Origin: Roseateles asaccharophilus
GTDB taxonomy: Bacteria > Pseudomonadota > Gammaproteobacteria > Burkholderiales > Burkholderiaceae_C
NCBI RefSeq assembly: GCF_031458115.1
Contig: NZ_JAVDXV010000006.1
Location: 382,276-414,275 of the forward strand
Reading direction: 5' to 3'
Length of the DNA stretch: 32,000 bases
The notes under the pieces were generated by a model. It searched no databases, was not told the origin of the DNA, and saw nothing but the letters and a program-made list of their open reading frames with translations. How positions within the stretch are numbered: the stretch's first letter is position 1; every line of letters begins with the position of its first letter. A program made the position numbers and the translations under genes. Below are positions 7,997 through 20,933 of the stretch, one piece after another.

Positions 7997-8441
7997 ATGT
8001 CGCTGACCCATCTGCCCCCCGACGCCCGTCCGCGCGAGAAACTGCTCGCCCGCGGCCCACAGGCGCTGGCGGAGCCGAGCTGCTGGCGTTGCTGCTGCGC
8101 ACGGGGCTCAAGGGCATGCCCGTGCTGCAGCTGGCGCAGAGCCTGCTGGACCGCTTCGACGGCTGGGCCGGGCTGCTGGCGGCCAGCGTGCAAGACCTCG
8201 GCAAGGTCAAGGGTCTGGGGCCTGCCAAGCGGGCGGAGATCGCCGCCGTGCTGGAGATTGCGCGGCGCTCGCTGAACCAGCAGCTGGCCGAGAAGCCGGC
8301 AATGAACGACAGCGACACGGTGAAGACTTATCTGCGCCTGCACCTGGGCGGGCTGGGACACGAGGTGTTCGCGGTGCTGTTCCTGGATTCGCAGCTCAAG
8401 CTCATCGCGATGGAGACGCTGTTCCAGGGCACGCTGGCATC
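7997..8441 (+). pseudogene. radC: radC (RadC/YicR JAB-domain family) 5' fragment, interrupted by the prophage and also frameshifted near 8068-8072
   Basis: Frame 2 gives MSLTHLPPDARPREKLLARGPQALA. Frame 1 continues ..AELLALLLRTGLKG...EVFAVLFLDSQLKLIAMETLFQGTLAS. The homology stops at 8441. Confidence 0.85.
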
Positions 8442-8464
8442 GATCAGCGTGCTGTATTTGCGGA
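8442..8464. repeat. Left terminal inverted repeat (attL, phage-derived P' arm)
   Basis: GATCAGCGTGCTGTATTTGCGGA is the reverse complement of 20680-20702 with one mismatch. It is preceded by TC (8440-8441). Confidence 0.8.
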
Positions 8465-8498
8465 AATCGTGGCCTCCGCTCCGTGCGGCGTTACGGAG

Positions 8499-8529
8499 AA
8501 TTATGTGAATCTACATAATTATGTGAATC
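8499..8529 (+). repeat. Tandem direct repeat AATTATGTGAATC x2 (18-bp register) in an AT-rich patch
   Basis: Exact 13-mers at 8499-8511 and 8517-8529. Confidence 0.8.
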
Positions 8530-8544
8530 AGCATAACGCCTCGT

Positions 8545-8783
8545 AATGACGCACTGAGCGGCCCGCGGCAGGCGACAGCCCGCAGGGCAGTGACTCGCGG
8601 CCGCAGGCCGCTCCCCGCCGGTACGGCAGTGACTCTGATTGCGGCCGCTCAGCCTTTGCCGGAGGCAATGACTCTCAGCCCGCCGCAGGCGGGCTGCCAG
8701 GAATCATCCAGTGACTCGCCCCGCCGGCCAGGCGCCGCCGGAGGCGTGACTCTCGAAAACGCCCTTCCCTGCAGGTCGTTTTC
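8545..8783 (+). repeat. Periodic array of (G/A)TGACTC cores, each followed by a GC-rich hairpin (putative ori/packaging/iteron region)
   Basis: Cores at 8590, 8629, 8668, 8711 and 8746 (spacings 39, 39, 43, 35), plus a degenerate ATGACGC at 8546. Hairpins include 8597-8611, 8676-8696 and 8755-8783. Confidence 0.75.
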
Positions 8784-8809
8784 CACCCCTTCGATATCAG
8801 CGCCCCGCG

Positions 8810-8820
8810 CGCTATACAGG
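8810..8820 (+). promoter_or_regulatory. CGCTATACAGG motif, copy 1 (candidate phage promoter element upstream of the g5p operon)
   Basis: Same motif at 12141, 14911 and 16691, each upstream of a plus-strand phage gene or operon. Confidence 0.35.
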
Positions 8821-8955
8821 TTCAAGGGGGCCTTGAAAACAACAACAAGGTTCTGGGGCGCACCTTCCCCACTGTGAAGGTCGCCGGCGCGGCTCCAGCT
8901 CGCCCCCGGCCTACGCCGCAACTTCAACAACAACCGCTATTCCAAGGGGGAAATC

Positions 8956-9195
8956 ATGCTCAAAGTCGTCGTCTATCAAGCCCGCACCGCTCGTTCTGAA
9001 AAGACCGGTAAGGACTACGTCAGTCAGACCGTCGAAATCGTTCAGTCGCCTGATCGGCCGAACGTCACGATGCGTCGCTTCGCTAAGTCTGAAGCTGAGG
9101 CGCTCAAGCCCGGGCAGTACACCTGCAAAGTGTCCTTCTTCAACAAAGGACTTGACCTGTCGCAGTCGTTCTACGACTTCCAGCCTGCGAAGTAA
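8956..9195 (+). CDS. ssDNA-binding protein, Ff g5p-like
   Basis: 79 aa with AAGGGGG RBS. It starts MLKV.. and ends ..PGQYTCKVSFFNKG...FQPAK, paralleling M13 g5p as I recall it (MIKV...PGLYTVHLSSFKVG...LVPAK). Confidence 0.7.
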   Translation: MLKVVVYQARTARSEKTGKDYVSQTVEIVQSPDRPNVTMRRFAKSEAEALKPGQYTCKVSFFNKGLDLSQSFYDFQPAK

Positions 9196-9197
9196 GC

Positions 9198-9455
9198 ATG
9201 CCCGCCGGCTCGCTCGAGAACGTGATCGTCTGCCGGCCTTCTGCCACGCCAGCCGCTCCCTGCGGCGCCGGCGAGGCCCCGACGGTCCTTCAGGCGTATG
9301 TTCTCGCGCCCTCCAGCTCTTCGTTCGTCGACGCCGCTGCAGGCCCCTACGACTACGCCACGGGCGCCGCCTATTGGTCCGCAGCCTTCGTCTTCACCGT
9401 GTCGTTGTACTTGTGCACCCGAGTCATCGGCACCATCGTCAACATGGTTCGCTAA
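9198..9455 (+). CDS. Small membrane protein, unknown function
   Basis: ATG lies 2 nt after the g5p-like stop. There is a single C-terminal hydrophobic helix (AAYWSAAFVFTVSLYLCTRVIGTIV). Confidence 0.5.
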   Translation: MPAGSLENVIVCRPSATPAAPCGAGEAPTVLQAYVLAPSSSSFVDAAAGPYDYATGAAYWSAAFVFTVSLYLCTRVIGTIVNMVR

Positions 9456-9524
9456 CGCCGCTGGACGCATCCAGCAACCGCCGCGGGTCGGACACCCGCA
9501 CGCTTCAATAAGGAGAACAACAAC

Positions 9525-9740
9525 ATGAAGCTGAACCGTACCGCCGCGCTCGTCGCTGCATCCGTACTGGCCGCACCGGCCGCCTTTGCTGCCGGCCCTA
9601 GCGCTGGTGACCTGTCCAACTTGACGCCCGACGGCGCAACGATCATGACCGCGATTGGCGCCGTCGCCCTCGTGCTCATCGGCATCAACCTGGGCCTCAA
9701 GGGCTTCCGCATCGTCCAGTCCCTGGTCGGCAAGCGCTGA
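9525..9740 (+). CDS. Major coat protein, g8p-like
   Basis: AAGGAG RBS. Signal peptide ends in AFA. The mature ~48 aa has an acidic N-terminus, a hydrophobic core (IMTAIGAVALVLIGINLGL) and a basic C-terminus (KGFRIVQSLVGKR). Confidence 0.8.
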   Translation: MKLNRTAALVAASVLAAPAAFAAGPSAGDLSNLTPDGATIMTAIGAVALVLIGINLGLKGFRIVQSLVGKR

Positions 9741-9748
9741 TAGCGCAG

Positions 9749-9776
9749 AAGGGGCGGCTAACCCCGCCCCTTTCTC
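9749..9776 (+). terminator. Rho-independent terminator/attenuator after the coat gene
   Basis: GGGGCGG-CTAACC-CCGCCCC followed by TTTCTC. This is the typical position after an inovirus g8. Confidence 0.65.
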
Positions 9777-9792
9777 ATCAAGGGGGCCTTTT

Positions 9793-9882
9793 ATGACGAT
9801 CAACGAGCTCTGGTACCTGACGCTGTTCGTGCACGGCGTCATCTGCGCTTGCGCAGTCATCGCTGGCTTGCGGGGTCGTTGA
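9793..9882 (+). CDS. 29-aa hydrophobic protein, g7p/g9p-like minor coat candidate
   Basis: AAGGGGG RBS 6 nt upstream of ATG 9793. MTINELWYLTLFVHGVICACAVIAGLRGR. The stop lies 1 nt before the g3p-like start. Confidence 0.5.
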   Translation: MTINELWYLTLFVHGVICACAVIAGLRGR

Positions 9883-9883
9883 C

Positions 9884-11563
9884 ATGCGCAAGCTGCTCAT
9901 CGCTCTTCTAGCGTTCTCTGTCATCTTCTTTGCTGTTGAGCGCGTACGCGCACAGGCACTACCCTCTTCACCGTTCTCGATCACCGCTAGCGACGCGCTC
10001 ACACTTGCCCGCCAGTCATGGGGAAGTGCATCGCTCATCGTCGGTGGCGGCACCGCCGTCGCAACTACGCTAGCTACCGCTGCCGGCGGCTTGTTCGGTA
10101 TCACGCCTATCGGCTGGGCGGGCATTGGTCTCGTTCTGCTCGCTACAGTGTTGATGACAAGCGACGCCTCTGGCAACTCAATCGCTGTTGTCGTCTCTAC
10201 GCAAGACATCGACGCGTCGCCCAATCCAGACCTTGCTTCGGGCGGTCAGACAACCTCTGGCGTCAGCAACTACTACGCGCTTGCGCCGGTAACGGGCGGC
10301 ATCGTCAAATATATCTCTAGCTCTAGTTGGTCGGCAGTCGGCTCAGATATATTGTCAGAGCCCGCACTACGACTGCGCGCGTATATCGCAACGATGTTCG
10401 CCGTGCCTAACAGTTGGCTGGTCAATAGCATCACCCAGGTCGGCAATACATATGTTGCCAGCAACGGCGGCGATACAACTAATATTGCGTTGGGTCGCTG
10501 CCCGTCTACCTCTTCAGGTTGTGTCGCACTTATATTTACTGCGCCCGTCGGGACTACCAAAGCTGAGTTTGAGTCAGTAATACCGGCCCTGCCGCCGTTC
10601 GCTGCCGCAGCTTGGACGATTCGGCCTAGTGGCGGAGCTCGCCCCTATTTCGCCATCGCAGTTCCTCTGGTTCTCGTCAACGAGATTATCAACTGCGACC
10701 CTTCGACGAGTTACTACGAATACTCTACAGCCAGCTGCATTCTGCTAAAGCCTACAACTACTGAGCCGCTTTCCAACGGTATGTGCCGAGTTAGCTGGTC
10801 TACGGATGGCTGCCCGGTATTCAACCGGCAAGACCCGGACTGCGCTTCAGCAGCCATCACTTTGTCTTGCGGTAGTGCGTCAGTCGCGCCATCGGTCACT
10901 GTTCTTGATCGAGCCACGGGTCAGACAGTTACTACCTCGCGCCCTGCTGTCGCTAGCCAAGGCCAACCGGGCTCTGTAACTGTCAAAGAGCGTACTCCCA
11001 ACGCAGCAAATGGCACTACTGTTGAGCGCTTGACTACAACGCAGTACCAAGCCGCCCCGGCGGGTCAGCCGAAGCCTGCGCCCGTCACCAACGGCGCTAA
11101 CCAGTCGACGTTGCCGGGCACTGGCGCTAACACCGGCAGCACGCCTGTCGCGCAGGTATCTGTGAGCAACTGGCCCTCGGTCGTAAACGTTCAAGGCACG
11201 GTCACGTGCACGAACTGCTCGACCGCTCAACAGCCCGTCAATATCAACGTGCCCGACCGCTTCAAGATTGACGGCGAAGTTCCCGCTGACGCGACCGGCC
11301 TGCCTACGCCGCCTGAGGCCGCCCCGCCAGCCGGCTTCATCACGAAGCTCAAAGAACGCCTTGCCGGCTTCGCAAACATCGAGCTGCCGCCGCACACAGC
11401 CACGTGCCCGCGCCTGGACATCAGCTGGCACGCATGGGGCGTCAATCTCGACTTGTCTAACAACACGATGTGCGCGTTTCTCGAAGAGCACCGCACGCTC
11501 TTCCAGGGCCTCATGCACTTCGCTTACATCGCCACCGCGATCATCATCGTCTTGGGAGCCTGA
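9884..11563 (+). CDS. Adsorption/minor coat protein, g3p-like
   Basis: 559 aa with a signal peptide, paired Cys residues, Ser/Thr/Pro/Gly-rich linkers and a C-terminal membrane anchor (FAYIATAIIIVLGA). Position matches g3. Confidence 0.7.
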   Translation: MRKLLIALLAFSVIFFAVERVRAQALPSSPFSITASDALTLARQSWGSASLIVGGGTAVATTLATAAGGLFGITPIGWAGIGLVLLATVLMTSDASGNSIAVVVSTQDIDASPNPDLASGGQTTSGVSNYYALAPVTGGIVKYISSSSWSAVGSDILSEPALRLRAYIATMFAVPNSWLVNSITQVGNTYVASNGGDTTNIALGRCPSTSSGCVALIFTAPVGTTKAEFESVIPALPPFAAAAWTIRPSGGARPYFAIAVPLVLVNEIINCDPSTSYYEYSTASCILLKPTTTEPLSNGMCRVSWSTDGCPVFNRQDPDCASAAITLSCGSASVAPSVTVLDRATGQTVTTSRPAVASQGQPGSVTVKERTPNAANGTTVERLTTTQYQAAPAGQPKPAPVTNGANQSTLPGTGANTGSTPVAQVSVSNWPSVVNVQGTVTCTNCSTAQQPVNINVPDRFKIDGEVPADATGLPTPPEAAPPAGFITKLKERLAGFANIELPPHTATCPRLDISWHAWGVNLDLSNNTMCAFLEEHRTLFQGLMHFAYIATAIIIVLGA

Positions 11564-11566
11564 CGC

Positions 11567-11863
11567 ATGTACGCAGCACTTCTCGCCGTCCTGGGCCGCG
11601 TTTTTGCGTGGGTCATGGGCGCCGGCACGCTCAAATGGGCCGTTGGAGCATTCTTGCTCTTCGGCGTCACGATCCTCGTCGACATCCTGCTCGACCTGCT
11701 TCCCACTTGGTTCGACCCAGCCCAGCTCGTCGGCGCGACCTCCGTCTTCACGCCCTCGATCTGGTACTTCCTGGACTACTTCGCTTTCCAGACCGGGCTC
11801 TCGATGATGTTTGCCGCGTACGCAGTGCGTTTCTTGATTCGTCGTCTCCCGGTCATCGGCTAA
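11567..11863 (+). CDS. Integral membrane minor coat protein, g6p-like
   Basis: 98 aa, multi-helix hydrophobic, immediately after the g3p-like gene. Confidence 0.6.
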   Translation: MYAALLAVLGRVFAWVMGAGTLKWAVGAFLLFGVTILVDILLDLLPTWFDPAQLVGATSVFTPSIWYFLDYFAFQTGLSMMFAAYAVRFLIRRLPVIG

Positions 11864-11897
11864 GAAGCAGTGATCCCCTCTGGGGACGCCTAAACGG

Positions 11898-12140
11898 CTA
11901 ATCCGGCTTCGTCAGCTCAGCGCTGTGTACTCGCACCGCGTGCGAACCGCTCACTTGACACGTTAGTTTGTCGCCGACTCGCAGATCGCGCCAGTCCACG
12001 CCTTCCACACTCTTCCCTATGCTGAGCTGCAGCCCGCCTTCTGACTCAGCTCTTGCTATCTCGAGCTCTGCGACGACTGCCGTCACTGTCGCCGTGACAG
12101 TCTGCTGTTCGTAGTTCATGTGCTGATGTTGCCTGCGCAT
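11898..12140 (-). CDS. Doubtful reverse-strand 80-aa ORF in the g6-g1 gap
   Basis: It is the only ORF in a 303-bp plus-strand gap. There is no convincing RBS at either ATG (12140 or 12119), and it uses rare codons. Confidence 0.3.
   Translation of the reverse strand: MRRQHQHMNYEQQTVTATVTAVVAELEIARAESEGGLQLSIGKSVEGVDWRDLRVGDKLTCQVSGSHAVRVHSAELTKPD
12082..12098. promoter_or_regulatory. Inverted repeat GTCAC-N7-GTGAC
   Basis: GTCACTGTCGCCGTGAC, about 45 bp upstream of CGCTATACGG motif copy 2. Confidence 0.35.
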
Positions 12141-12150
12141 CGCTATACGG
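12141..12150 (+). promoter_or_regulatory. CGCTATACGG motif, copy 2 (upstream of zot/g1p)
   Basis: CGCTATACGGTCAAAAGGGGG parallels CGCTATACAGGTTCAAGGGGG at 8810-8830. Confidence 0.35.
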
Positions 12151-12166
12151 TCAAAAGGGGGACCGC

Positions 12167-13261
12167 ATGGCTATTCATGCAATCACAGGCGTTATGGGCT
12201 CTGGCAAGAGCTACGAAGCCGTTTCAGAGAAGATCGTTCCAGCGCTTCGAGACGAGGCCGCTCGTCGCGTAGTCACGAACATCGAAGGCTTGTCTGTGCC
12301 AGCTATCGCTGCGTACATCAACAAGCCTGAGAGCGAGGTCGAAGCACGCATCGTTCGAATCAGCTACGACCGCGTCAGCGAACCTGGCTTCTGGTACGAC
12401 CCTGAGCACGGCTCGGGGTCCGAAACCGTTGTCCAGCCCGGCGACCTGGTCGTACTCGACGAGGTCTGGCGCTATTTCAACCGTGGCGACAAACTGCCCG
12501 AGGATGCAATGCGCTTCTTCCGCATGCACCGACACTACGTGAGCGAGCAATCGGGTCTCACCTGCGACGTTGTGCTCATCAACCAGAGCTTTCGCGGTAT
12601 ACACCAGGACATTCGCGACGTAGTCGAGTTGCAGTTCCAATGCCGCAAGCTCAAAGCCCTCGGACGGCCTCAGAACTACCAAGTGCTCTTGCTGGAGGGC
12701 GGCGAGCGCAAGCCCTCGCACGACTACATTCGCACTTACTCGAAGAGGGTCTTCCCGCTATACAGCAGCTACGCCGGCGGCCAGGGCAAAGAGGCTGTCG
12801 ACAAGCGGCAGAGCGTCTTCAACACGCCCTTCTTCAAGGTCGTTCTGCCGCTGTTCGCGGTCCTCATGGTCTTCGGCGTCTACAAGACGTACAGCTACTT
12901 CGCCGACATGGGCAAGCCGGCTGACGGCGCAGCGCTCGTAACCCCATCAGCTGCTGCGTCATCGCCTTCGGGCCTGCCGACGCCGCCGTCAGCTGGTGCG
13001 GCTCCTGCGCCTGCGCAGTCAGCTTTCAGCACTGCGTCTGGCTCCGCGGCCGATTGGCGCCTCGTCGCACGCTACAGCGTCGGTGGCTTGCCTGTTGTCG
13101 TCATGGTCAACGCCAGTGGCCAGTACCGAACTGTGACGAGCGGCAGCTACACGCAGGGCGCGTCCACTGACGTCTCAGTACAGATTCCGCTCGATCCGTC
13201 TGATCGCGCTACGCCTTGGTCTGGCCCTGCTCCTGCATCGACCAAGGGGGCCGCGCGATGA
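12167..13261 (+). CDS. Zot/g1p-family assembly ATPase
   Basis: N-terminal Walker A GVMGSGKS, DE Walker B (VVLDEVW), a central TM helix (VVLPLFAVLMVFGVY) and a periplasmic C-terminal part. Confidence 0.85.
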   Translation: MAIHAITGVMGSGKSYEAVSEKIVPALRDEAARRVVTNIEGLSVPAIAAYINKPESEVEARIVRISYDRVSEPGFWYDPEHGSGSETVVQPGDLVVLDEVWRYFNRGDKLPEDAMRFFRMHRHYVSEQSGLTCDVVLINQSFRGIHQDIRDVVELQFQCRKLKALGRPQNYQVLLLEGGERKPSHDYIRTYSKRVFPLYSSYAGGQGKEAVDKRQSVFNTPFFKVVLPLFAVLMVFGVYKTYSYFADMGKPADGAALVTPSAAASSPSGLPTPPSAGAAPAPAQSAFSTASGSAADWRLVARYSVGGLPVVVMVNASGQYRTVTSGSYTQGASTDVSVQIPLDPSDRATPWSGPAPASTKGAAR

Positions 13262-14610
13262 ACCGCAAGATCGCCCTCATCGGCGGCTTCCTCGTTGTGA
13301 AGAAGATCGTCGTCATCGCGGTGCTGGCGATGCTCGTCGGGTCGAGTGAAGCCCAGCCGGCGCTCAAGCTCCCGCCGCCTCCGGCGCCGGTGCCTGCCTC
13401 CGGCTTTCAGACGTTCGGCACTGGTCTACCCCTTGCCGAGTTCTTGAAGATCGCTCTAGGCGAGCTCTCTGGCCGCCCCTACGTTCTCGCTCCGGAGGTG
13501 GCTGCTTCGTCTCAGCTTGTTGCTGCAGACCTGACTAAGTCGAAACTCAAAGACCCGCTGCCGCTCGTCCGGGCCGTCATTGAGCCGCTTGGCCTCGAAA
13601 TCCGAGACCTCGGCGGCGTTCTGCTCGTCGACAAGCGCCGCACTGAGGCATCGAAGAAGAGTCCAGGTGACACGTTCACCTACCGCCCTCGGCATCGCTC
13701 TGTCAACAGCCTTTCGACGTACTTCAATATGTTCCCCGAGCTCGCTTTCAGCTACTCGGGCGGCCTCGCTGTCCGCGCCCAGACCGTCTCCAGCTCCGAC
13801 TCCACCGAGCCCGGCAAGGCTCTGCAGCCGACCATGAGTAGCGGCGCCACCACTTTTAGCGCGCAGGACAAAGACCCGAGCTTTCTCGTCGTCGCCGGCG
13901 ACGCCGCAGAGATTAGTCGTTTCAAGACCTTGATCGTTGAGTTGGATGTGCCTGTTCCCCAGGTGCTCGTCAAGGCCTATGTGTTTGAAGTCCGGACTAC
14001 AGACGCTCGCGATGGCGGTGTGAAGCTCGTCGCTGATCTGCTTGGCGGCCGCGTCGGCTTCAACCTCGGCGGCGCGTCCAGTTCTACCACGCCGGATGCT
14101 CTACGACTCACTCTTCCCAACGTCAGTCTTGCTGTGTCTGCGCTGGCTGCGGACAGCAGAGTGCGCCTCGTCAGCTCGCCGGTTCTCAGAGTTGATGACA
14201 GCACTACCGCTAGCGCTACTGTGGGCACCTCTACGCCCACTCTGGGTGCTATCGTCAGTCAGAACGGCTCGACCCAGCAGAGCGTGTCATATCAAGAGGC
14301 CGGCGTTTTGCTGTCTGTTAGCGCGCGAGTCCTTGAAGCGAGCATCCGTCTTACCATCTCGCAAGAGCTGTCTAGCTTCGTCAAAACGGACACCGGGCTC
14401 TCGAACACTCCGACTAAGCTCCGCCGCGCTTTCAAATCTGACGTTGTCGCCCGTGACGGCGAAGCTCTTCTGCTCGGGGGCCTGACAGAAGCTCAAACGT
14501 CTGATGCCAAGCAAACCAGCTTCTTCGGCTTCGGCTCAGCCTCTAAGTCGACTTCAAGCTCTGAAGTCGTCGTGCTGTTGACTGCTACTCGTCTCGATCA
14601 GCAGCAGTGA
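13258..14610 (+). CDS. Secretin, g4p-like
   Basis: ATG 13258 overlaps the zot stop as ATGA. Signal/TM N-terminus and a C-terminal secretin-type domain (VLVKAYVFEV...RLVSSPVLRV...YQEAGVLLSV...ALLLGGL). Confidence 0.85.
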   Translation: MNRKIALIGGFLVVKKIVVIAVLAMLVGSSEAQPALKLPPPPAPVPASGFQTFGTGLPLAEFLKIALGELSGRPYVLAPEVAASSQLVAADLTKSKLKDPLPLVRAVIEPLGLEIRDLGGVLLVDKRRTEASKKSPGDTFTYRPRHRSVNSLSTYFNMFPELAFSYSGGLAVRAQTVSSSDSTEPGKALQPTMSSGATTFSAQDKDPSFLVVAGDAAEISRFKTLIVELDVPVPQVLVKAYVFEVRTTDARDGGVKLVADLLGGRVGFNLGGASSSTTPDALRLTLPNVSLAVSALAADSRVRLVSSPVLRVDDSTTASATVGTSTPTLGAIVSQNGSTQQSVSYQEAGVLLSVSARVLEASIRLTISQELSSFVKTDTGLSNTPTKLRRAFKSDVVARDGEALLLGGLTEAQTSDAKQTSFFGFGSASKSTSSSEVVVLLTATRLDQQQ

Positions 14611-14866
14611 GTGAGTCGATCCACATCTGCCATTCCTCATAAAACACACACTCCGTGCCGTCTTCGAGAAGCAGCAAAGCTCGCCTACTTCGCGCGAATT
14701 GAACGCATTTGTCTCTAACTTCTTCACCCATATCAGAGAGCACTACGTACCGAGTGCCACATGGCGTTGCGTGTACCGGTGTGAATCTCTTCTTCGACGC
14801 CACACAGCCTCCAAGCGTAAATATATGTAACAAGCCCGGGTCAGCCAAAAACGCCCACTGAATCAA
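14585..14866 (-). CDS. Orphan hypothetical protein (AT-rich cargo)
   Basis: 93-aa ORF convergent with and overlapping the secretin 3' end by 26 nt. No recognisable motif, and the start is uncertain. Confidence 0.4.
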   Translation of the reverse strand: MIQWAFLADPGLLHIFTLGGCVASKKRFTPVHATPCGTRYVVLSDMGEEVRDKCVQFARSRRALLLLEDGTECVFYEEWQMWIDSLTAADRDE

Positions 14867-14889
14867 GGCAGTTCTTCTAGCGCCTCCAA

Positions 14890-14905
14890 GTCACGATTTC
14901 GTGAC
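14890..14905. promoter_or_regulatory. Palindrome GTCACGA-TT-TCGTGAC (operator candidate)
   Basis: 7-bp perfect arms, 5 bp upstream of CGCTATACAGG copy 3, in a divergent intergenic region. Confidence 0.45.
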
Positions 14906-14910
14906 CTCGA

Positions 14911-14921
14911 CGCTATACAGG
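14911..14921 (+). promoter_or_regulatory. CGCTATACAGG motif, copy 3
   Basis: Identical 11-mer to 8810-8820. It lies upstream of the ORF starting at 14972. Confidence 0.35.
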
Positions 14922-14971
14922 TATGTACGGGCTGCGCGTTGCAGCCCCACCCAACCCTGAAAGGCGCTTCC

Positions 14972-15415
14972 ATGAACTTCGAATACTTTGACGACGGTTG
15001 CCATCACAATCTCGGCGACATCAATACAAATGGATATGTTTTCGTCGCATCTCAAGATGAAAACATTTCGTCTAGTGAGCTTGAATCTGCTGCATATGAA
15101 GCAGACGCGCGTCGCTTCTGCGCTGATTTGAAGACAATTCGTCGCATCAGCATGCTACCTGTGACTTTTCTTACGGGGCACCATGTCGTAGCTTGCATTC
15201 GAGTTACTACAGCGTCTCGGACGTATTCGCTCTACACCAACGATTTTGGTGACAGCCTGCTTGATGAGTCGCACTACACATTGTTCTTCAAACGCAATTT
15301 CAGTCTCTTTCGCTACGATCTTCAGACTCCTCAAGGCCGGGCCGCTGCTCGTGAATATGTTCGTCGCAAGTTGAAGTTTTTGGCACAGCACGGCAAGCCT
15401 TTTGACGGTTATTGA
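14972..15415 (+). CDS. Orphan hypothetical protein (AT-rich cargo)
   Basis: ATG 14972 within ORF 14939..15415 (the track start is TTG). 147 aa (MNFEYFDDGCHHNLGD...) with no recognisable motif. Confidence 0.5.
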   Translation: MNFEYFDDGCHHNLGDINTNGYVFVASQDENISSSELESAAYEADARRFCADLKTIRRISMLPVTFLTGHHVVACIRVTTASRTYSLYTNDFGDSLLDESHYTLFFKRNFSLFRYDLQTPQGRAAAREYVRRKLKFLAQHGKPFDGY

Positions 15416-15528
15416 GTACGCGCGGCGGTCGGCGGACAGCGAGCGAGGAGCGGACGGACACACATGCCTCGCCCGCACCGCAGCGAGGGTCCGTCGCCCG
15501 CCGCGACTCTTCAAAAACTCCAGTCCGG

Positions 15529-15711
15529 CTAGGCCGATTTCGCGCCCGTCAGTTTTGTAATTGCGTTCCTATACTGAATTGGAAGCGTGGTCACACTAGG
15601 GTACACATCGGCGGGCACTGGGGAGTGCCCGTCGTCCTTTCCGAATCTTTCTTCCACCTCGGCCGGCGTCAATCTGACGAACGGCCTCTTTTTCGCGTCA
15701 ATTTCGGTCAT
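15529..15711 (-). CDS. Small hypothetical protein, last gene of the reverse-strand operon
   Basis: 60 aa. Its ATG overlaps the upstream stop as ATGA (15708-15711). KKRPFVRLTPAEVEERF could be a ribbon-helix-helix, which is speculative. Confidence 0.45.
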   Translation of the reverse strand: MTEIDAKKRPFVRLTPAEVEERFGKDDGHSPVPADVYPSVTTLPIQYRNAITKLTGAKSA

Positions 15712-16088
15712 TCTTGATCTTCTTGATGCTCGCCCGCGCCCCGGCGCGGGCCCTGGTCCGGGTTTGCTTTCTTCGCTATCACTAGGTCGCCGACGACGTC
15801 AAACTCGATCTGCTGTCCTGGCCGCAGGTCCATAGCTCTACGTATCGCTGCGGGTATCGTTATTAAGTTCCGCCTGTTCATGGTCGAGTGCCATTGCATA
15901 CTCTGCTTCGCTCGGTCGACTATCGTCTCGACGCGAGGAACAAGCTCAGACTTCAGCGCTTCTGCGATCCAGCGCACTTCGTGCTCAGACGGGTCGTGAA
16001 TTCGAATCTGCGCCACGATCTGCTGCACGAGCTCTGACAGCACTCTGTTGCGCTCAAACTGAATCATTTCTTCGTCACTCGGGATCAT
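15708..16088 (-). CDS. Protein with a C-terminal AbrB/SpoVT/MazE-type DNA-binding domain (candidate phage regulator or antitoxin)
   Basis: NLITIPAAIRRAMDLRPGQQIEFDVVGDLVIAKK fits the looped-hinge-helix pattern. The likely start is ATG 16088 (MIPSDEE..). The track ORF extends to 16130. Confidence 0.55.
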   Translation of the reverse strand: MIPSDEEMIQFERNRVLSELVQQIVAQIRIHDPSEHEVRWIAEALKSELVPRVETIVDRAKQSMQWHSTMNRRNLITIPAAIRRAMDLRPGQQIEFDVVGDLVIAKKANPDQGPRRGAGEHQEDQE

Positions 16089-16434
16089 TTTTGATCCCAA
16101 AAGCTCGGTACGCGGCTTCTCTAGACACAATGTGCTTGTTCTCGGGCGCTGACGCTGCTGCGATCACGCGCAGCGCACCTTCCGCAGTCTTGAACCGCTC
16201 TTCTGTCGTGCGGATGAGCCATCGCACGTCTGCTCTCGTGAGCGCCCAGCACTTCTCGTTCGACTGCCGCATCAGCGGCCGCGCCAGGTATGCGACTTTG
16301 AATCCAGCACTGTGCGCCCGCCTGCGTGTTGCCACGCTTACAAGCTGATCCGCGAGGTCGTTGAGCTTCTCGAAGCGCAAGAACATCTGCCCTTCGTTGT
16401 CGAAGTCCGTCATATCCGCACAGTCTTGGTGCAT
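16075..16434 (-). CDS. Hypothetical protein, first gene of the reverse-strand regulatory operon
   Basis: 119-aa ORF divergent from rep, overlapping the next gene by 14 nt. An alternative start is at 16413. No motif recognised. Confidence 0.5.
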   Translation of the reverse strand: MHQDCADMTDFDNEGQMFLRFEKLNDLADQLVSVATRRRAHSAGFKVAYLARPLMRQSNEKCWALTRADVRWLIRTTEERFKTAEGALRVIAAASAPENKHIVSREAAYRAFGIKNDPE

Positions 16435-16636
16435 TTCAATAGCTTGCCGCTATCGAAAAATCGACGGTTTCGCGCCTCCCGGCTGCATCGAGTTTTTGCA
16501 ATCCTCACTACGTCGGACAGCAGCCTGAGGCTGCATGACTCTACTCTAACGTCGGACGGCATGGGGAGCCTATCTTCTCTCGCTTCAAAAACTCGATGCT
16601 AGACCGTCGCTCCTGAGTCGGCAAAAAGCGCATTTC

Positions 16637-16648
16637 TTGCTATAGCAA
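16637..16648. promoter_or_regulatory. Perfect 12-bp palindrome TTGCTATAGCAA
   Basis: Read directly, in the rep/regulator divergent intergenic region. Confidence 0.4.
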
Positions 16649-16667
16649 AAACCAATCGACTTTCGGG

Positions 16668-16680
16668 GTCAAGACTTGAC
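16668..16680. promoter_or_regulatory. Palindrome GTCAAG-A-CTTGAC overlapping a TTGACA hexamer
   Basis: 6-bp perfect arms, 10 bp upstream of CTATACGGG motif copy 4 (16691-16699). Confidence 0.4.
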
Positions 16681-16690
16681 ATCGCCGGAC

Positions 16691-16699
16691 CTATACGGG
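16691..16699 (+). promoter_or_regulatory. CTATACGGG motif, copy 4 (upstream of rep)
   Basis: Shares CTATAC(A/G)GG with copies at 8812, 12143 and 14913. Confidence 0.35.
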
Positions 16700-16792
16700 G
16701 TGTACCCCCACAACGGCCCCGCGAGGTAGATCACAGCGCACTGCGCAAATCGAGGACATGAGTCGGATAGGGCCATCAACCCAGCCCTCCCC

Positions 16793-18736
16793 ATGTCCGC
16801 TTCTACTGCCATCTCCCCGGCGGAGCTTCTCCACTCTGCAGAGCTCAACGCCGCTCCCGCACCTTCATCTGCCTTCGGCCCGCTGCCCCTCGCAAAGGCG
16901 CTGCAAGCCGGCCTTCTCGCTGCACGCGCAGAGTTCTGCGGCGACCTTCCAGCCCACCTTATTGGCGCCACTGCGCCGGAGCGCTACGACGCCGCTGCTG
17001 CGACGGCTGAGCGCTTTCAAATGCTTCTGGGAACGGCGAGTGACGATCACGCTCTGCTTGACCGCCTTGTTCAGCTTGCGCAGGCCGATCTGGGTGGCTT
17101 CGCTTGGCGCAGCTCGACCGTCGCGTCGGCGGTCACCTCGAAGTTGATCGAGCGGCACAAAGTGGAGCTCAAGTCTGTCGCGGCCGTCTTTGAGTTCGAT
17201 GCTTCTGTGGGCGAGCGTGTTCTAGCTATCGCCAACGCACACCTCGGCCGTCCTGTTCCCGGCGACTCGCTTCAAACGAAGGTCTCGCGCATACTCGACC
17301 GCAAGTTCTGGCTTCGGCACTACTCAAAGCTCGCCCGCCAGCGTGACGAGTTCTCCTTCATCAAGTCCGGCTTCGTTTCTGCGGCTGGCGAGAAGTACAT
17401 CAGCGACCGCGGTCTGTCACGCCACTCCGAAGCTCTGGCGGCACAGCAAGCGTGGCTCGAGTCGACCGTCCTCATCGACCACAGCGCAGCAGCTTCTACT
17501 GGCAAGTTCAAGTACATCAAGCTCGCTGACGCAGCGAAGCGCGCGGCGCACCGTGATGCAAGCCTGTGGGCGTTCCTCACCGGCATCGAGCAGCTCAGCA
17601 TCGAATCCAACCTCGAATGCGCGCTCGTCACCCTTACGGCGCCGTCATCCTTTCACGCCTGCCCCGGCACTCGCTCCAAGTTGTTCGACGGCGTCAGCAC
17701 ACCCCTCGACTCGCACAAGTACATCGCTAGCCGCTGGACGGCCTTCCAGCGCGATCTTGACAACGAAGGCCTCGCGGTCAGCGGTGTCCGCGCTACTGAA
17801 CCGCAGGGCGACGGCACATGCCATTGGCATGTCTGGCTGCACTATGCGCCCGACACTCTGCCGAGCATCCTCTCCCGCTTGGCTCACTACTTCCAAGGCG
17901 ACACCGCTCGCCGTGTCGAACCTGTAGTCGTTCGTCAGGTCGAAGCTGACTTGGCCGGCCGCAAGGTCAACAAGAAGACCGGTGAGCGCTTCAGTGAGTC
18001 GTTCAGCGTTCTGCGCGCCGGGGCGCTCGTTCAGCGTTCAACGAAGCCAGCTGCTCAGGTCGACTTCAGCGTCATCAATCGCTCGTACGCGTCCGGCGCT
18101 ACTTACATGGCCAAGTACACGGTCAAGTCGTTCGATCAGTCCGAGAACAGCAAGCGTGTCCACGCATGGCGCTGGACCTGGGGCGTACGCGGCTTCCAGC
18201 TCTTCGGGCTGCGCAACTGCCGCGGACTCTGGGATGAGCTCTACCGCGCCACTGAGCGCCCCTTCGATTCGCGCGCCGCTGCGCTGTGGGACGCTGTCCA
18301 CGCTGAGCCCGGCAAGCACACCCGCCAGGTCATCAACCCGCTTACTGGACTGCAGGAGGTTGAGCACTACGAGGGGGGCACCGCTGCATTCATTCGCCTT
18401 CAAGGCGGCCTCGCGGCTGCCGGTGGCGCTGCAGGCCTGCGCATCAAGATCACCTACGTGCCTGCTGAAGGACGCTATGGCGACTTCATGAAGCGCCGCC
18501 GCGGACTTCGCATCATGCTTGGCGACACGGTGCTCTACAGCTTCAAAACCCGCGAGCCGGGGCGCTGGGTCATGTCTGCCGAGGGACGCGTTGAGCAGAC
18601 CTTCAGCGCTCTGCGCCGCATCCCGTTCGTCGATGCGGCAGAGCTGATCGAGCTGACCTGCGCTGAGTTCAAAGCCCTCCTCGCCAGCTATGCGGCCGGC
18701 GTCGACCCGTTCACCGGCGAAATCCTCGACGCATAG
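16793..18736 (+). CDS. Rolling-circle replication initiator (HUH endonuclease)
   Basis: 647 aa. HUH-type motif GTCHWHVWLHY (HWH at 17822-17830) and tyrosine motif YMAKYTVK (Y..KY at 18104-18118). Confidence 0.75.
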   Translation: MSASTAISPAELLHSAELNAAPAPSSAFGPLPLAKALQAGLLAARAEFCGDLPAHLIGATAPERYDAAAATAERFQMLLGTASDDHALLDRLVQLAQADLGGFAWRSSTVASAVTSKLIERHKVELKSVAAVFEFDASVGERVLAIANAHLGRPVPGDSLQTKVSRILDRKFWLRHYSKLARQRDEFSFIKSGFVSAAGEKYISDRGLSRHSEALAAQQAWLESTVLIDHSAAASTGKFKYIKLADAAKRAAHRDASLWAFLTGIEQLSIESNLECALVTLTAPSSFHACPGTRSKLFDGVSTPLDSHKYIASRWTAFQRDLDNEGLAVSGVRATEPQGDGTCHWHVWLHYAPDTLPSILSRLAHYFQGDTARRVEPVVVRQVEADLAGRKVNKKTGERFSESFSVLRAGALVQRSTKPAAQVDFSVINRSYASGATYMAKYTVKSFDQSENSKRVHAWRWTWGVRGFQLFGLRNCRGLWDELYRATERPFDSRAAALWDAVHAEPGKHTRQVINPLTGLQEVEHYEGGTAAFIRLQGGLAAAGGAAGLRIKITYVPAEGRYGDFMKRRRGLRIMLGDTVLYSFKTREPGRWVMSAEGRVEQTFSALRRIPFVDAAELIELTCAEFKALLASYAAGVDPFTGEILDA

Positions 18737-18929
18737 CGCCTCGCAAGTTCGAATCCGCCTGATCCGCTCAGGCCCACACACCCCGCACCCGCGGGGCGCA
18801 GCCACTGGCGAGCCTCTGAAGTGTGATGGGATTCGAACCAACCCTCAGGTCTGAGCTTCGCCGATCCGCGCGGCGCTTCGCGCGGGCGACGCCTCGAAAC
18901 CGGCTTAACCGGGCCGGCAAGGCGCCTCA

Positions 18930-18953
18930 GGCGGGCCCCGTAGGGGTCCCGCC
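18930..18953. terminator. GC-rich hairpin between convergent rep and recombinase genes
   Basis: GGCGGGCCCC-GTA-GGGG(T)CCCGCC. There is no clear U-tract, so terminator function is uncertain. Confidence 0.35.
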
Positions 18954-18991
18954 CTTGGATAGATATGCGTAACTTTCTAACCCTGAATTTA

Positions 18992-20611
18992 CTAGGACTT
19001 TTTGAGGCTCGGCAGTTCAAGCTCACCTTTCAGGCTTGCAGCCCAGGCCGGCTGCGCGTCGCCCTGCGCTTTCACCCCGAGCGGTATCGTCAGCAGCTGC
19101 TGCGAGTTCTTGAACTGAACTGCGACTAGGTCATACGCCCAGAGCCAAATCACGTCCACGGCTCGTCGTAGTCTGTTGTTGCAGTCCGCGCGTAGACGCA
19201 TCGCATCGTCTGACGTCTCGAACAGCACTGCGATGACTTGCTCTGCGTAAGCCGTGTCAAATAGCGAGTTTGGGTTGACTGCCAGCTGCGCTTTGAGCTC
19301 TTCGATGACGTTCTCAAGCTGCTCACGTTCAGCGGTCAACCTGGCAATGTCTTGAAGTACCTCGGGCACGGCGCCCACGGCTCTGCTGACTGCTACGACG
19401 TTTGCTATTGCGGTCTTCACGTCAGCGAGCTTTGACTCAGCTACCGCAACTTCTTTCACCGCTGCGTCTTTGTCGTACCCCAGGCCCAGGTGCGCTCCCG
19501 CGTACGCACATATGTCTAAGATGACCTGCGCTTCGGTCTTCAGCGCTGACATCGTCTTGCACTTCGTAATCCCGGCCGCTTTTGAAGAGCAGATCAGCTG
19601 TGCCCTGCTCCAGCCGCGGTACTCGACTTTTCGCTGTATCGACGCGCCACAGTGCCCGCACCTGAGCAGTCCACTGAATACGTGAAAGTAGTTGCCATCG
19701 CGTTTTGGCGGCGCTGTTTTGCGCGTCTGGACTGACGATCTTGCGAGGTGCCAGAGGTCGTCACTTATCACCCGAGGGTAGTAATCCTTGATCGGTGGTC
19801 CTACTGCTACAGGCACGTCACTCTCAAGCTCTTTCAACACGTTCTTGCCTTTGAGCTTGTGCTGAGCCTCTCCCAAAACTGCCCTGTTCTTCAGGATGAT
19901 TTGCGGCATCCTCGAATGCCAGTGTTCTGTTGTCATCGAGGTCACGCGTGTAGGTACCGGCCAGCCTTCTGCGTTCGCTAGCTTCGCAATCGTAGGCCCG
20001 CCCATTCCGCGGCCAGCCGCTTCGAACACTTTTCTCACGGACTCAGCCAGCTCTTCGACAACTTCCCAGTCGCCTCCCGCTTGACTTCTTCTCAGCCACC
20101 CCGGAGCTGAGCCGAAGACCTTCTTGCCTTCTTCTCGTTTTCGCTTGAACGTCTCGCTTACACGCCCGCCCTTGCGAAAGCTCTCTTCGTGCGCTTGCGC
20201 GAACGCAAGCATCATGCCGATCAGAGCGGCGATGTTGTTCAGCGACTTCTTCGTGTAGATGTGCCCGTCGAGCAACGTGACGATGTTCACGTCTTTGCGC
20301 AGGATCGACTTGACCAGCGTGTCTGCATCGTCAATCTCTTCGCGACTGAGCCGGTCGAAGTGTTCAATCAGCAGATAACTGCCCTTCGGCACCCTGCCCT
20401 CTTCCACCTGCTCCAAGAACGCCGCGAGGTTGCCTTTCGTTCTGTGCTTGCCGGTGAAAGCACTCAAGCCGAGGTCCGCGACGCTCTCATCGAGCTTCAT
20501 GCCGTGCTGCGCGCACCACCGCTCTGCTGCATCGCCCTGTCGTTCTTCTGAGCGCCCTTTTGATTGTCTTGCCGACGAAAATCGAACGTAGCTGATGACC
20601 CGAGGCTTCAT
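18992..20611 (-). CDS. Large serine recombinase (integrase)
   Basis: Resolvase-type N-terminus ([12 protein letters not shown]...[11 protein letters not shown]), a recombinase domain, a Cys4 zinc-ribbon (CGHCG...C..K..C) and a coiled-coil C-terminus. ATG 20611 is preferred; the track start TTG 20623 is possible. Confidence 0.9.
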
Positions 20612-20679
20612 GTCGATAGTCAAATCCTTGTTCCGAAGATATGGAATTCTAGTGCAGATCAGCGTTCAATATCTTCGAA

Positions 20680-20702
20680 TCCGCAAATACAGCACGCTCA
20701 TC
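20680..20702. repeat. Right terminal inverted repeat (attR, phage-derived P arm)
   Basis: TCCGCAAATACAGCACGCTCATC followed by TC (20703-20704). It is the reverse complement of 8442-8464 with one mismatch. Confidence 0.8.
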
Positions 20703-20933
20703 TCCACGACCGTTCACCCGCGCGAGGTCGTCAAGCGCGCGCTGGCGCTGGGCGCGGGTGCCGCCATCCTGGCGCACAACCACCCCAGCGGCCACGCCGA
20801 GCCGTCGCGCGCCGACGAGTTGCTGACGAAACAGCTCAGCGACGCGCTGGCGCTGGTGGACGTGCGCGTGGTGGATCACCTCGTCGTGGGCGCCGGTGAT
20901 GTCGTTTCCTTTGCCGAGCGGGGTCTGCTGTGA
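20703..20933 (+). pseudogene. radC 3' fragment (JAB/MPN domain)
   Basis: ..[42 protein letters not shown]...[21 protein letters not shown] carries the canonical RadC C-terminal motifs HNHPSG and SFAE. Confidence 0.9.

Follow-up and report, generated by a model that had tools for sequence, protein, structure and literature searches.

The known routes by which filamentous phages (inoviruses) enter a chromosome are host XerCD, tyrosine integrases, transposases and a small resolvase-type recombinase. Excerpts of the inovirus survey of Roux et al. 2019 (PMC6813254), the largest yet published, list tyrosine recombinases, transposases and one small serine-recombinase family, the sole serine family there being annotated Resolvase and occasionally HTH_7. 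Closest to the case described here are the Ralstonia inoviruses of the phiRSM1/phiRSM3 type which, in the extracts available on them (Askora et al. 2011, cited in PMC10975378; PMC3816273, PMC4471427), likewise have their own serine-family recombinase beside the attachment site and integrate site-specifically. The window analysed here, a stretch of 32,000 nucleotides (nt) of Roseateles asaccharophilus DNA, contains a complete inovirus prophage of 12.26 kb, at positions 8442-20702, which splits the host gene radC and encodes, directly against its right-hand junction, a large serine recombinase (LSR, or serine integrase). We put the probability that the phage integrated by conservative site-specific recombination through this enzyme of its own (18992-20611) at about 0.85.

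The phiRSM-type enzyme is a protein of some 200 amino acids (aa) made up of a resolvase domain and a C-terminal helix-turn-helix (196 aa for RIP1 ORF3), whereas that of the window has 539 aa and the domains of an LSR. The phiRSM-type target is said to be a tRNA-Ser gene; here it is radC, a protein-coding gene, entered with a 2-bp overlap and 23-bp inverted arms. Nor does the locus resemble CTXphi-type integration by XerCD at dif, the insertion lying inside radC, with a 2-bp overlap and a phage-encoded recombinase. Full-text literature searches returned no paper on an LSR in an inovirus, on radC as an inovirus target or on natural tandem attP sites, and in the phage WO papers radC appears solely as a gene of the phage, without being a target.

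The recombinase

The open reading frame (ORF) was listed on the minus strand from a TTG start (18992-20623, 543 aa); the ATG at 20611 is the start in all relatives and gives a protein of 539 aa, equal in length to the identical NCBI protein of Roseateles asaccharophilus. It encodes an intact LSR with the full domain layout. Pfam matches above the curated cut-offs place a Resolvase domain at residues 5-163 (E 1.7e-19), a Recombinase domain (PF07508) at 187-296 (E 2.7e-09) and a Zn_ribbon_recom domain (PF13408) at 312-364 (E 2.9e-06). When the protein is aligned with 23 homologues (24 sequences in all), D86, R87, R90 and the four cysteines C318, C321, C341 and C351 are invariant, and Y8, R10 and S12 are conserved in at least 90%. 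An earlier note, made from the letters of this DNA, had proposed an LSR with a resolvase domain, a recombinase domain, a Cys4 zinc ribbon and a coiled coil, and had named the catalytic Ser/Arg set as the thing to look for on alignment; Pfam, alignment and model bear out this architecture, and the constellation is intact.

A profile of the recombinase family matches the SPbeta, TP901-1 and PhiC31 integrases in the PDB. In the AlphaFold model (mean predicted local distance difference test score 80.8) a catalytic domain, a long helix (127-160) and a recombinase domain follow one another in that order, and the C-terminal part consists of zinc-ribbon strands (316-345) and then an antiparallel helix pair at 381-444 (helices 381-412 and 416-444), as modelled a coiled coil. 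The top structural matches found by Foldseek are the full-length SPbeta integrase (E 1.9e-16), the PhiC31 integrase and the Listeria LSR-DNA complex 4kis. The gene does lie directly against the right junction, as the earlier note had it, but it is the 5' end that faces the repeat and not, as stated there, the 3' end, the right inverted repeat being 68 nt from the ATG and 56 nt from the TTG.

The junctions with radC

At the two ends of the prophage lies a 23-nt inverted repeat (22/23), each arm of which is flush on its outer side with one TC. If attL is taken as B-TC-P' and attR as P-TC-B', the sites are an attP of TCCGCAAATACAGCACGCTCATC TC GATCAGCGTGCTGTATTTGCGGA and an attB of …GGCACGCTGGCA TC CACGACCGTT… at codon 149 of radC. 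The junctions have nothing but this TC in common, with neither a target-site duplication nor a long direct repeat. When the radC flanks are joined they encode a RadC of 224 aa, which is also the length of its homologues (120/120 among the matches listed), and they align unbroken across the junction with intact radC, the protein being identical there to that of related Roseateles. The uninterrupted radC of the closest relatives (95% amino-acid and 88% nucleotide identity) reads …GCA TC G… at the junction spot, the gene order FKBP, radC, Smr is common to the window flanks and the closest relatives with intact radC, and the empty site was confirmed in three loci (L092, L093 and L094).

The 2-bp overlap, together with a frame that breaks in the ATC register, is the signature of a serine recombinase, and not of XerCD, a tyrosine integrase or a transposase; the serine-integrase anatomy proposed earlier for these junctions is thus upheld by the 23-bp arms, the shared TC and the restored RadC. 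Two other crossovers were tried and rejected. The trinucleotide ATC, present at both junctions, adds 2 nt, with which radC falls out of frame and no longer fits the empty site; a 9-nt direct repeat, GATCAGCGT (at 8442 and 20657), taken as a tyrosine-type core, would leave outside the element 39 nt that do not belong to radC.

The mechanism that we favor would begin with attP in the double-stranded replicative form, a 48-bp site with two near-identical inverted 23-bp arms around TC. Recombinase dimers would bind it and the matching radC attB at codon 149, both sites would be cut at TC, and the half-sites would be rotated and rejoined. The products would be attL (5' part of radC, TC, P' arm) and attR (P arm, TC, 3' part of radC), splitting the RadC JAB domain, and the circular junction predicted on excision is …CGCTCATC TC GATCAGCG…. 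This order of events, like any function of the inner site described below, is as we picture it.

Relatives of the recombinase

Relatives of the recombinase, at 35-69% identity, were found in Comamonas, Massilia, Thauera, Rhodoferax and Duganella and on many metagenome contigs. Nearly all of the closer ones inspected (about 35% identity or more) adjoin a radC fragment, and in every readable junction, about 30 loci, the break falls at the same radC codon, each with a 2-bp center; the clade is therefore radC-specific. Where both ends are available (L004, L084 and L088), joining them rebuilds an in-frame radC (G-S/T-L-T/D-Q-T-S-V). The gene is turned towards the junction in almost all relatives, and no more than 40-43 nt separate its ATG from the crossover.

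The closest relatives (56-69% identity; loci L082-L089) sit in radC islands of about 10 kb that are not phages, extending for example over 9727-20000 in L083, 9724-21033 in L084 and 2622-12697 in L088. The replication proteins of the islands are Phage_GPA in L082, L083 and L096, RepC in L084 and L088, and a D5-type primase in L087, and their cargo includes Eco57I/XhoI or BsuBI restriction-modification, Abi, DndB, and Mrr or type ISP enzymes. A hidden Markov model built from 120 homologues of the phage assembly protein Zot found no Zot in islands of the L082-L089 type. Searches of the first 81 related loci with Zot and other phage proteins of the window (tblastn, phmmer) gave no locus with Zot, which means that the relatives of the recombinase are for the most part carried by something other than a phage. 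In L082, L083 and L096 the GPA initiator next to the recombinase shares 46-50% identity with the Rep of the window and has the same convergent orientation, which makes the recombinase-Rep pair a shared module. Since this module is held in common with non-phage radC islands, the phage probably acquired it by exchange with such elements.

An LSR-carrying inovirus is not a unique case, as two further lineages exist in metagenomes. One (L098/L102) is represented by a 9.7-kb contig with a recombinase 47%, a Zot 57%, a pIV 61% and an ssb 59% identical to those of the window; the ends of the L098 contig are not joined, and there is no radC beside its att site. The other (L120/L122; JACCDM011125955.1, JACCDM011123512.1) is circular, about 10.24 kb with a 120-nt terminal overlap, and its recombinase is 35% identical. 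L098 and L120 each have one attP, a palindrome that precedes the LSR gene by 38-110 nt and is not flanked by radC, that of L120/L122 being CCCCGAATGGTGGCTGGTGGTC TG GGTTAAGGGCCACCAATTGGGG, about 110 nt upstream; a single attP upstream of the LSR is the arrangement that the window phage would have once excised. In L098 no Phage_GPA gene lies beside the recombinase, and a different ORF follows on the same strand (9159-9689), which may be a plasmid-type initiator. The replication module evidently varies among recombinase-carrying inoviruses.

In a rough neighbor-joining tree the three inovirus recombinases are scattered among those of the islands, which suggests repeated exchange of the module. 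In IMG/VR the recombinase had one relative only, a distant one (34%); Zot and pIV had none that was close, and neither attP arm occurred there as an exact copy. Among GenBank phage records there was no inovirus with a similar recombinase, the best match being an unannotated 12.7-kb fecal contig at 33% identity. The recombinase homologue P0115 and the Zot homologue P0262 both list a longest contig of 7027 nt, and may possibly come from a fourth inovirus of this kind.

An inner attP-like site

Between the right-hand arm and the recombinase gene there is a second site of the same form, TCCGAAGATATGGAATTCTAGTG CA GATCAGCGTTCAATATCTTCGAA on the plus strand. The earlier note had pointed to a 9-bp inverted repeat upstream of the gene, and both copies are present (CGAAGATAT at 20634-20642 and ATATCTTCG at 20669-20677); instead of an isolated operator-like hairpin, however, they are the outer tips of a complete second attP of 23+2+23 bp that matches the functional attP of relatives. 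Its two 23-nt arms, around CA, are complementary at 16/23 positions. The gene-proximal arm agrees with the working P arms of L088, L100 and L084 at 22/23, 21/23 and 20/23 positions, respectively, and lies 43 nt from the ATG, the same distance as in relatives; the other arm agrees with the P' arm of L088 at 17/23. The leader next to the gene-proximal arm is only 9-14/20 identical to that of relatives, and the coding sequence of the recombinase has 64-71% nucleotide identity. A MAFFT alignment with seven relatives shows the window to have an insertion of 48 nt between radC and the conserved P arm. A degenerate half-site pattern derived from relatives and scanned over the whole window has exactly four perfect matches, which are the four att arms, against 0.09 expected even with two mismatches allowed; the 9-bp repeat is not a product of chance. 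By these comparisons the phage keeps an intact attP of ancestral type beside the attP actually used.

The two sites differ at their centers. The crossover dinucleotide is CA in all of the roughly 30 relatives examined (TG on the strand of the recombinase gene) and TC in the window prophage alone; the host codon at the crossover is Ser (TCC) here, and Gln or His (CAx) in the hosts of most relatives. Among 120 close RadC homologues (P0121-P0240) this codon specifies Ser in 68, His or Gln in 37 and Ala in 15, unlike the flanking RadC residues, which are nearly fixed among close Roseateles-like genomes. At the DNA level the intact radC of L092 and L093 has TC at the crossover, and that of L094 has CA. 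Variation at this point of radC could affect susceptibility to the element family. A serine integrase recombines attP with attB only if their central dinucleotides are the same, so a phage with a CA attP only should not integrate into the radC of this host, and the TC of the outer site accounts for integration into its TC-type radC. For PhiC31 integrase, att pairs with differing central overlaps form orthogonal sets, according to excerpts of PMC3936721. The outer arms form a near-perfect palindrome (22/23) and match the inner P' arm at 16-17/23 positions, the outer P' arm having its first nine bases, GATCAGCGT, in common with it; in view of this likeness the outer arms may derive from the inner P' arm.

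Weighing the explanations

Several points tell against integration by the phage's own recombinase. That this protein catalysed this junction we infer, and recognition of the outer site by the enzyme is assumed: the outer arms agree with the conserved P arm of the closest relatives at 13/23 positions, and are closer to those of L004 (17-18/23), from a more distant subclade, and to the P'-type arms that close relatives have. No sigma-70-like promoter was found between 18700 and 21000 on either strand, leaving none recognisable for the gene in the integrated state, and no recombination directionality factor was found, nor does any small ORF co-occur with the recombinase across elements. The 5' fragment of radC has a 1-nt frameshift near 8068-8075 (MSLTHLPPDARPREKLLARGPQALAE in one frame, AELLALLLRTG… in another), which could mean an old, fixed insertion with decay of the disrupted gene, or a sequencing error. 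This frameshift, the likeness of the outer arms to those of L004, whose recombinase is only 40% identical, the match of the inner arms to the closest recombinase relatives, and the recombinase-Rep module held in common with non-phage islands would together fit a different history, in which an earlier integrase of another specificity made the junction and was replaced by an LSR gene with its own attP cassette from a radC island, the ability to excise then being lost. We think this unlikely, as it needs a further replacement at a spot exactly adjoining the old arm, the outer arms, which agree with the P' arms of close relatives (L088) at 16-17/23 positions and share with them a distal TGCGGA motif, fall within the range recognised in the subclade, and the phage genes are all intact ORFs. 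Less probable by far is that host XerCD at a dif-like site, or a transposase, inserted the phage and that the recombinase is a mere passenger. XerCD is a common inovirus route, and transposases are among those listed in the excerpts of PMC6813254, but the insertion is inside radC and not at dif, the junctions have the 2-bp overlap and inverted arms described above in place of a duplication or long repeat, no tyrosine recombinase or DDE transposase was seen among the larger ORFs of the element that were scanned, and some 30 relatives of the recombinase occupy the same site.

If the phage did integrate by its own enzyme at the outer site, the inner site still has to be accounted for. Our tentative preference, at somewhat under even odds, is that it is a relic or a regulatory operator, the TC site having arisen by duplication of attP or by palindromisation of a P'-like arm. 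On that account, and just as tentatively, the old CA site would no longer recombine and would at most bind the recombinase before its own gene, which would be autoregulated. A promoter or leader must lie in the 91 nt that separate the crossover from the ATG, and 48 of these are taken up by the site; the P arm is similarly near the ATG in relatives, so that recombinase binding in the leader would be a family trait, and the palindromic outer arms, with their likeness to the inner P' arm, fit a recent derivation. Its arms, however, are without decay by comparison with the functional arms of relatives, and no promoter was detected at the inner site, where recombinase binding is putative. It is also possible, though we doubt it, that the inner CA and the outer TC site both function as attP for one recombinase, each matching a natural class of radC alleles. 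The inner site is complete, is oriented as the outer one and is placed where relatives keep their only attP, and its gene-proximal arm is far more conserved than the leader and coding sequence around it, suggesting maintenance. The restriction of TC to this prophage, the occurrence of Ser, His/Gln and Ala alleles among RadC homologues and the orthogonal overlap pairs of PhiC31 integrase in the excerpts of PMC3936721 would also agree with two working sites. The conservation of the arm could nevertheless reflect merely a recent origin of the outer site; no prophage integrated via the inner site of this phage was found; the inner and outer P arms share, counted by eye, 5/12 of the bases proximal to the recombinase domain, so that one enzyme may not bind both; and the literature searched holds no natural precedent.

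Other features of the prophage

The window has a G+C content of about 69%, within which an island of lower G+C (55-63%) extends from roughly 8.5 to 20.7 kb. The features are collected in Table 1. That the element is a genuine inovirus, as had been proposed, is confirmed by matches for a single-stranded DNA (ssDNA)-binding protein, a major coat protein, a pVI-like protein, Zot/pI, a pIV secretin and a Phage_GPA Rep. The first of these genes form a co-directional module in the order ssb, coat, pIII-like, pVI-like, pI, pIV. Zot is 57-79% and pIV 61-79% identical to those of other small inovirus contigs, and the ssDNA-binding protein is 59% identical to the product of an ORF beside the attP region of L098. 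The listed ORF of pIV begins at a TTG (13216), the ATG at 13258 being the likely start. An initiator of the Phage_GPA type is on record in inoviruses (iPF_00075, in the part of the PMC6813254 supplement available), and the 140-aa protein with an AbrB/MazE-type domain is a candidate phage regulator.

Table 1. Features of the prophage and its junctions, in order along the window
Feature	Position	Strand	Basis
5' part of host radC (RadC residues 1-148 and TC of codon 149)	7998..8441	+	Pfam UPF0758_N, RadC positions 2-50; collinear with intact radC in L092/L094
Crossover dinucleotide TC in attL	8440..8441	.	Only sequence common to both junctions; joining restores frame and empty site
Outer P' arm (GATCAGCGTGCTGTATTTGCGGA); with 8418-8441, attL	8442..8464	+	22/23 inverted repeat with 20680-20702; perfect half-site pattern match
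Sigma-70-like promoter match TTCACA-16 nt-CATAAT, outward through attL	8499..8529	-	10/12 match, 0.2 expected
Five RTGACTC repeats, 35-43 nt apart, each beside a G+C-rich hairpin	8590..8752	+	Non-coding, between attL and ssb
Putative ssDNA-binding protein (pV-like), 79 aa	8956..9195	+	PHROG 2866, weak, E 0.0026
Major coat protein, 71 aa	9525..9740	+	PHROG 2186/6548
Large pIII-like adsorption or minor coat protein, 559 aa	9884..11563	+	PHROG 7187, gene position, homologues in inoviruses L098, L099
pVI-like minor virion protein, 98 aa	11567..11863	+	PHROG 974, E 2e-14
Zot / pI assembly ATPase	12167..13261	+	Pfam Zot E 4e-25; PHROG 197 E 3e-65
pIV secretin	13258..14610	+	Pfam Secretin; PHROG 1012 E 2e-73
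140-aa protein, C-terminal AbrB/MazE-type DNA-binding domain	15708..16130	-	Pfam MazE_antitoxin E 1.6e-07
Rolling-circle replication initiator (Phage_GPA)	16793..18736	+	Pfam E 2.4e-29; convergent with recombinase gene
Large serine recombinase (LSR, integrase), 539 aa	18992..20611	-	Pfam, alignment, PDB profile search, AlphaFold, Foldseek
Inner, intact attP-like site	20632..20679	.	Arm identity to relatives; 48-nt insertion
Outer P arm (GATGAGCGTGCTGTATTTGCGGA on minus strand); with 20703-20727, attR	20680..20702	-	Inverted repeat; perfect half-site pattern match
Crossover dinucleotide TC in attR	20703..20704	.	Comparison of joined flanks with empty site
3' part of host radC (last base of codon 149 to stop; JAB domain, HNHPSG motif)	20705..20933	+	Pfam RadC positions 43-121

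The intergenic region with the RTGACTC repeats folds, as ssDNA, with a z-score of -4.07, and GAGTCA repeats lie at the corresponding place in the related inovirus L098 (6820-6915); it is probably an origin, packaging or regulator-binding region. Upstream of Rep, a non-coding stretch of 27 nt (16529-16555) is 96% identical to L098 214-240, in contrast to only about 70-75% nucleotide identity over the rest of the phage; it contains ATGACTC and fits the att half-site pattern with 2 mismatches. For a 158-aa ORF of the accessory region (14939-15415) there are homologues at 43% identity in L006, a Massilia radC island, and, more weakly, in L099, an inovirus contig. Where Rep and the recombinase gene converge there is a G+C-rich hairpin, GGCGGGaCCCC…GGGGcCCGCC (18929-18955), which is likely to serve as a bidirectional terminator, though it is without a T-run and absent from the output of the terminator scan.

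Expression and excision

The promoter match listed in Table 1 runs from 8527 to 8500, within two copies of AATTATGTGAATC (8499-8511 and 8517-8529), and is the sole match near the element ends. To judge by its position and direction, only in the circular form would transcription from it cross the two attP sites and enter the recombinase gene. The idea that expression depends on the state of integration, put forward in the earlier note, gains a little from this one 10/12 match in a high-G+C organism, which would be usable only in the circle; it loses from the lack of a comparable outward promoter in the right orientation in L084, L088, L098 and L120, for which reason it is not claimed as a feature of the family. 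A search for conserved small ORFs yielded only shadow ORFs inside the recombinase gene, in agreement with the earlier note that no directionality factor is identifiable.

Comparison with known systems

The radC islands L082-L089 of Comamonas, Massilia, Thauera and others are entered at the same radC codon as the window phage, with the recombinase gene facing the junction alike. They differ from it in being without Zot, secretin and coat genes, and in having one attP arm and a center that is always CA. The presence of the recombinase-Rep module in restriction and defense islands ties filamentous phages to a pool of small integrative elements; the module may move between inoviruses and defense islands, and the islands may even depend on such phages. 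With about 30 natural integrase/att pairs and a fixed crossover position, the radC-specific clade is also a compact resource on how serine integrases read their sites.

Inoviruses integrated by an LSR expose a blind spot in the calling of prophage boundaries. The boundary rule in the excerpts of PMC6813254 is based on direct repeats of at least 10 bp, by which the 2-bp overlap of a serine integrase would be missed. A six-member 'RadC' protein family appears among the inovirus genes in the portion of its supplement available, and may reflect boundaries that overshot into a split radC.

The integrases of tailed phages (SPbeta SprA, PhiC31, TP901-1, Listeria A118/LI and Bxb1) have the same order of domains and predicted fold as the recombinase described here, and likewise an attP of about 48 bp with dyad-symmetric arms and a non-palindromic central dinucleotide. 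SPbeta, A118 and Bxb1 also insert inside a host gene. Sequence identity to them in structural alignments is 14-18%, and the window clade is radC-specific and found in Betaproteobacteria and relatives; the carrier here, judged by its genes, is a 12-kb filamentous phage with ssDNA, and a second complete attP lies alongside the first. This is a known class of enzyme in an unreported carrier, with a target defined for the whole family, and large serine integrases would constitute a fourth kind of inovirus route, in at least three lineages.

The tandem CA and TC sites offer a testable case of an integrase system tracking a change in its host target. Should both prove to be functional, the phage would have a wider host range, because the central dinucleotides of attP and attB must be identical, and a filamentous phage could thereby lysogenise hosts that have drifted from the otherwise universal CA site of the clade. 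The closest parallel is found in engineered att pairs of PhiC31 integrase, where, according to excerpts of PMC3936721, one integrase serves several pairs that do not cross-react by virtue of their 2-bp overlaps, the same logic that two working attP sites would follow. Those pairs are man-made and, in the same excerpts, identical outside the overlap, whereas the sites of the window are natural, stand in tandem and differ in their arms as well; as a dual attP they would be the natural counterpart of the engineered orthogonal pairs.

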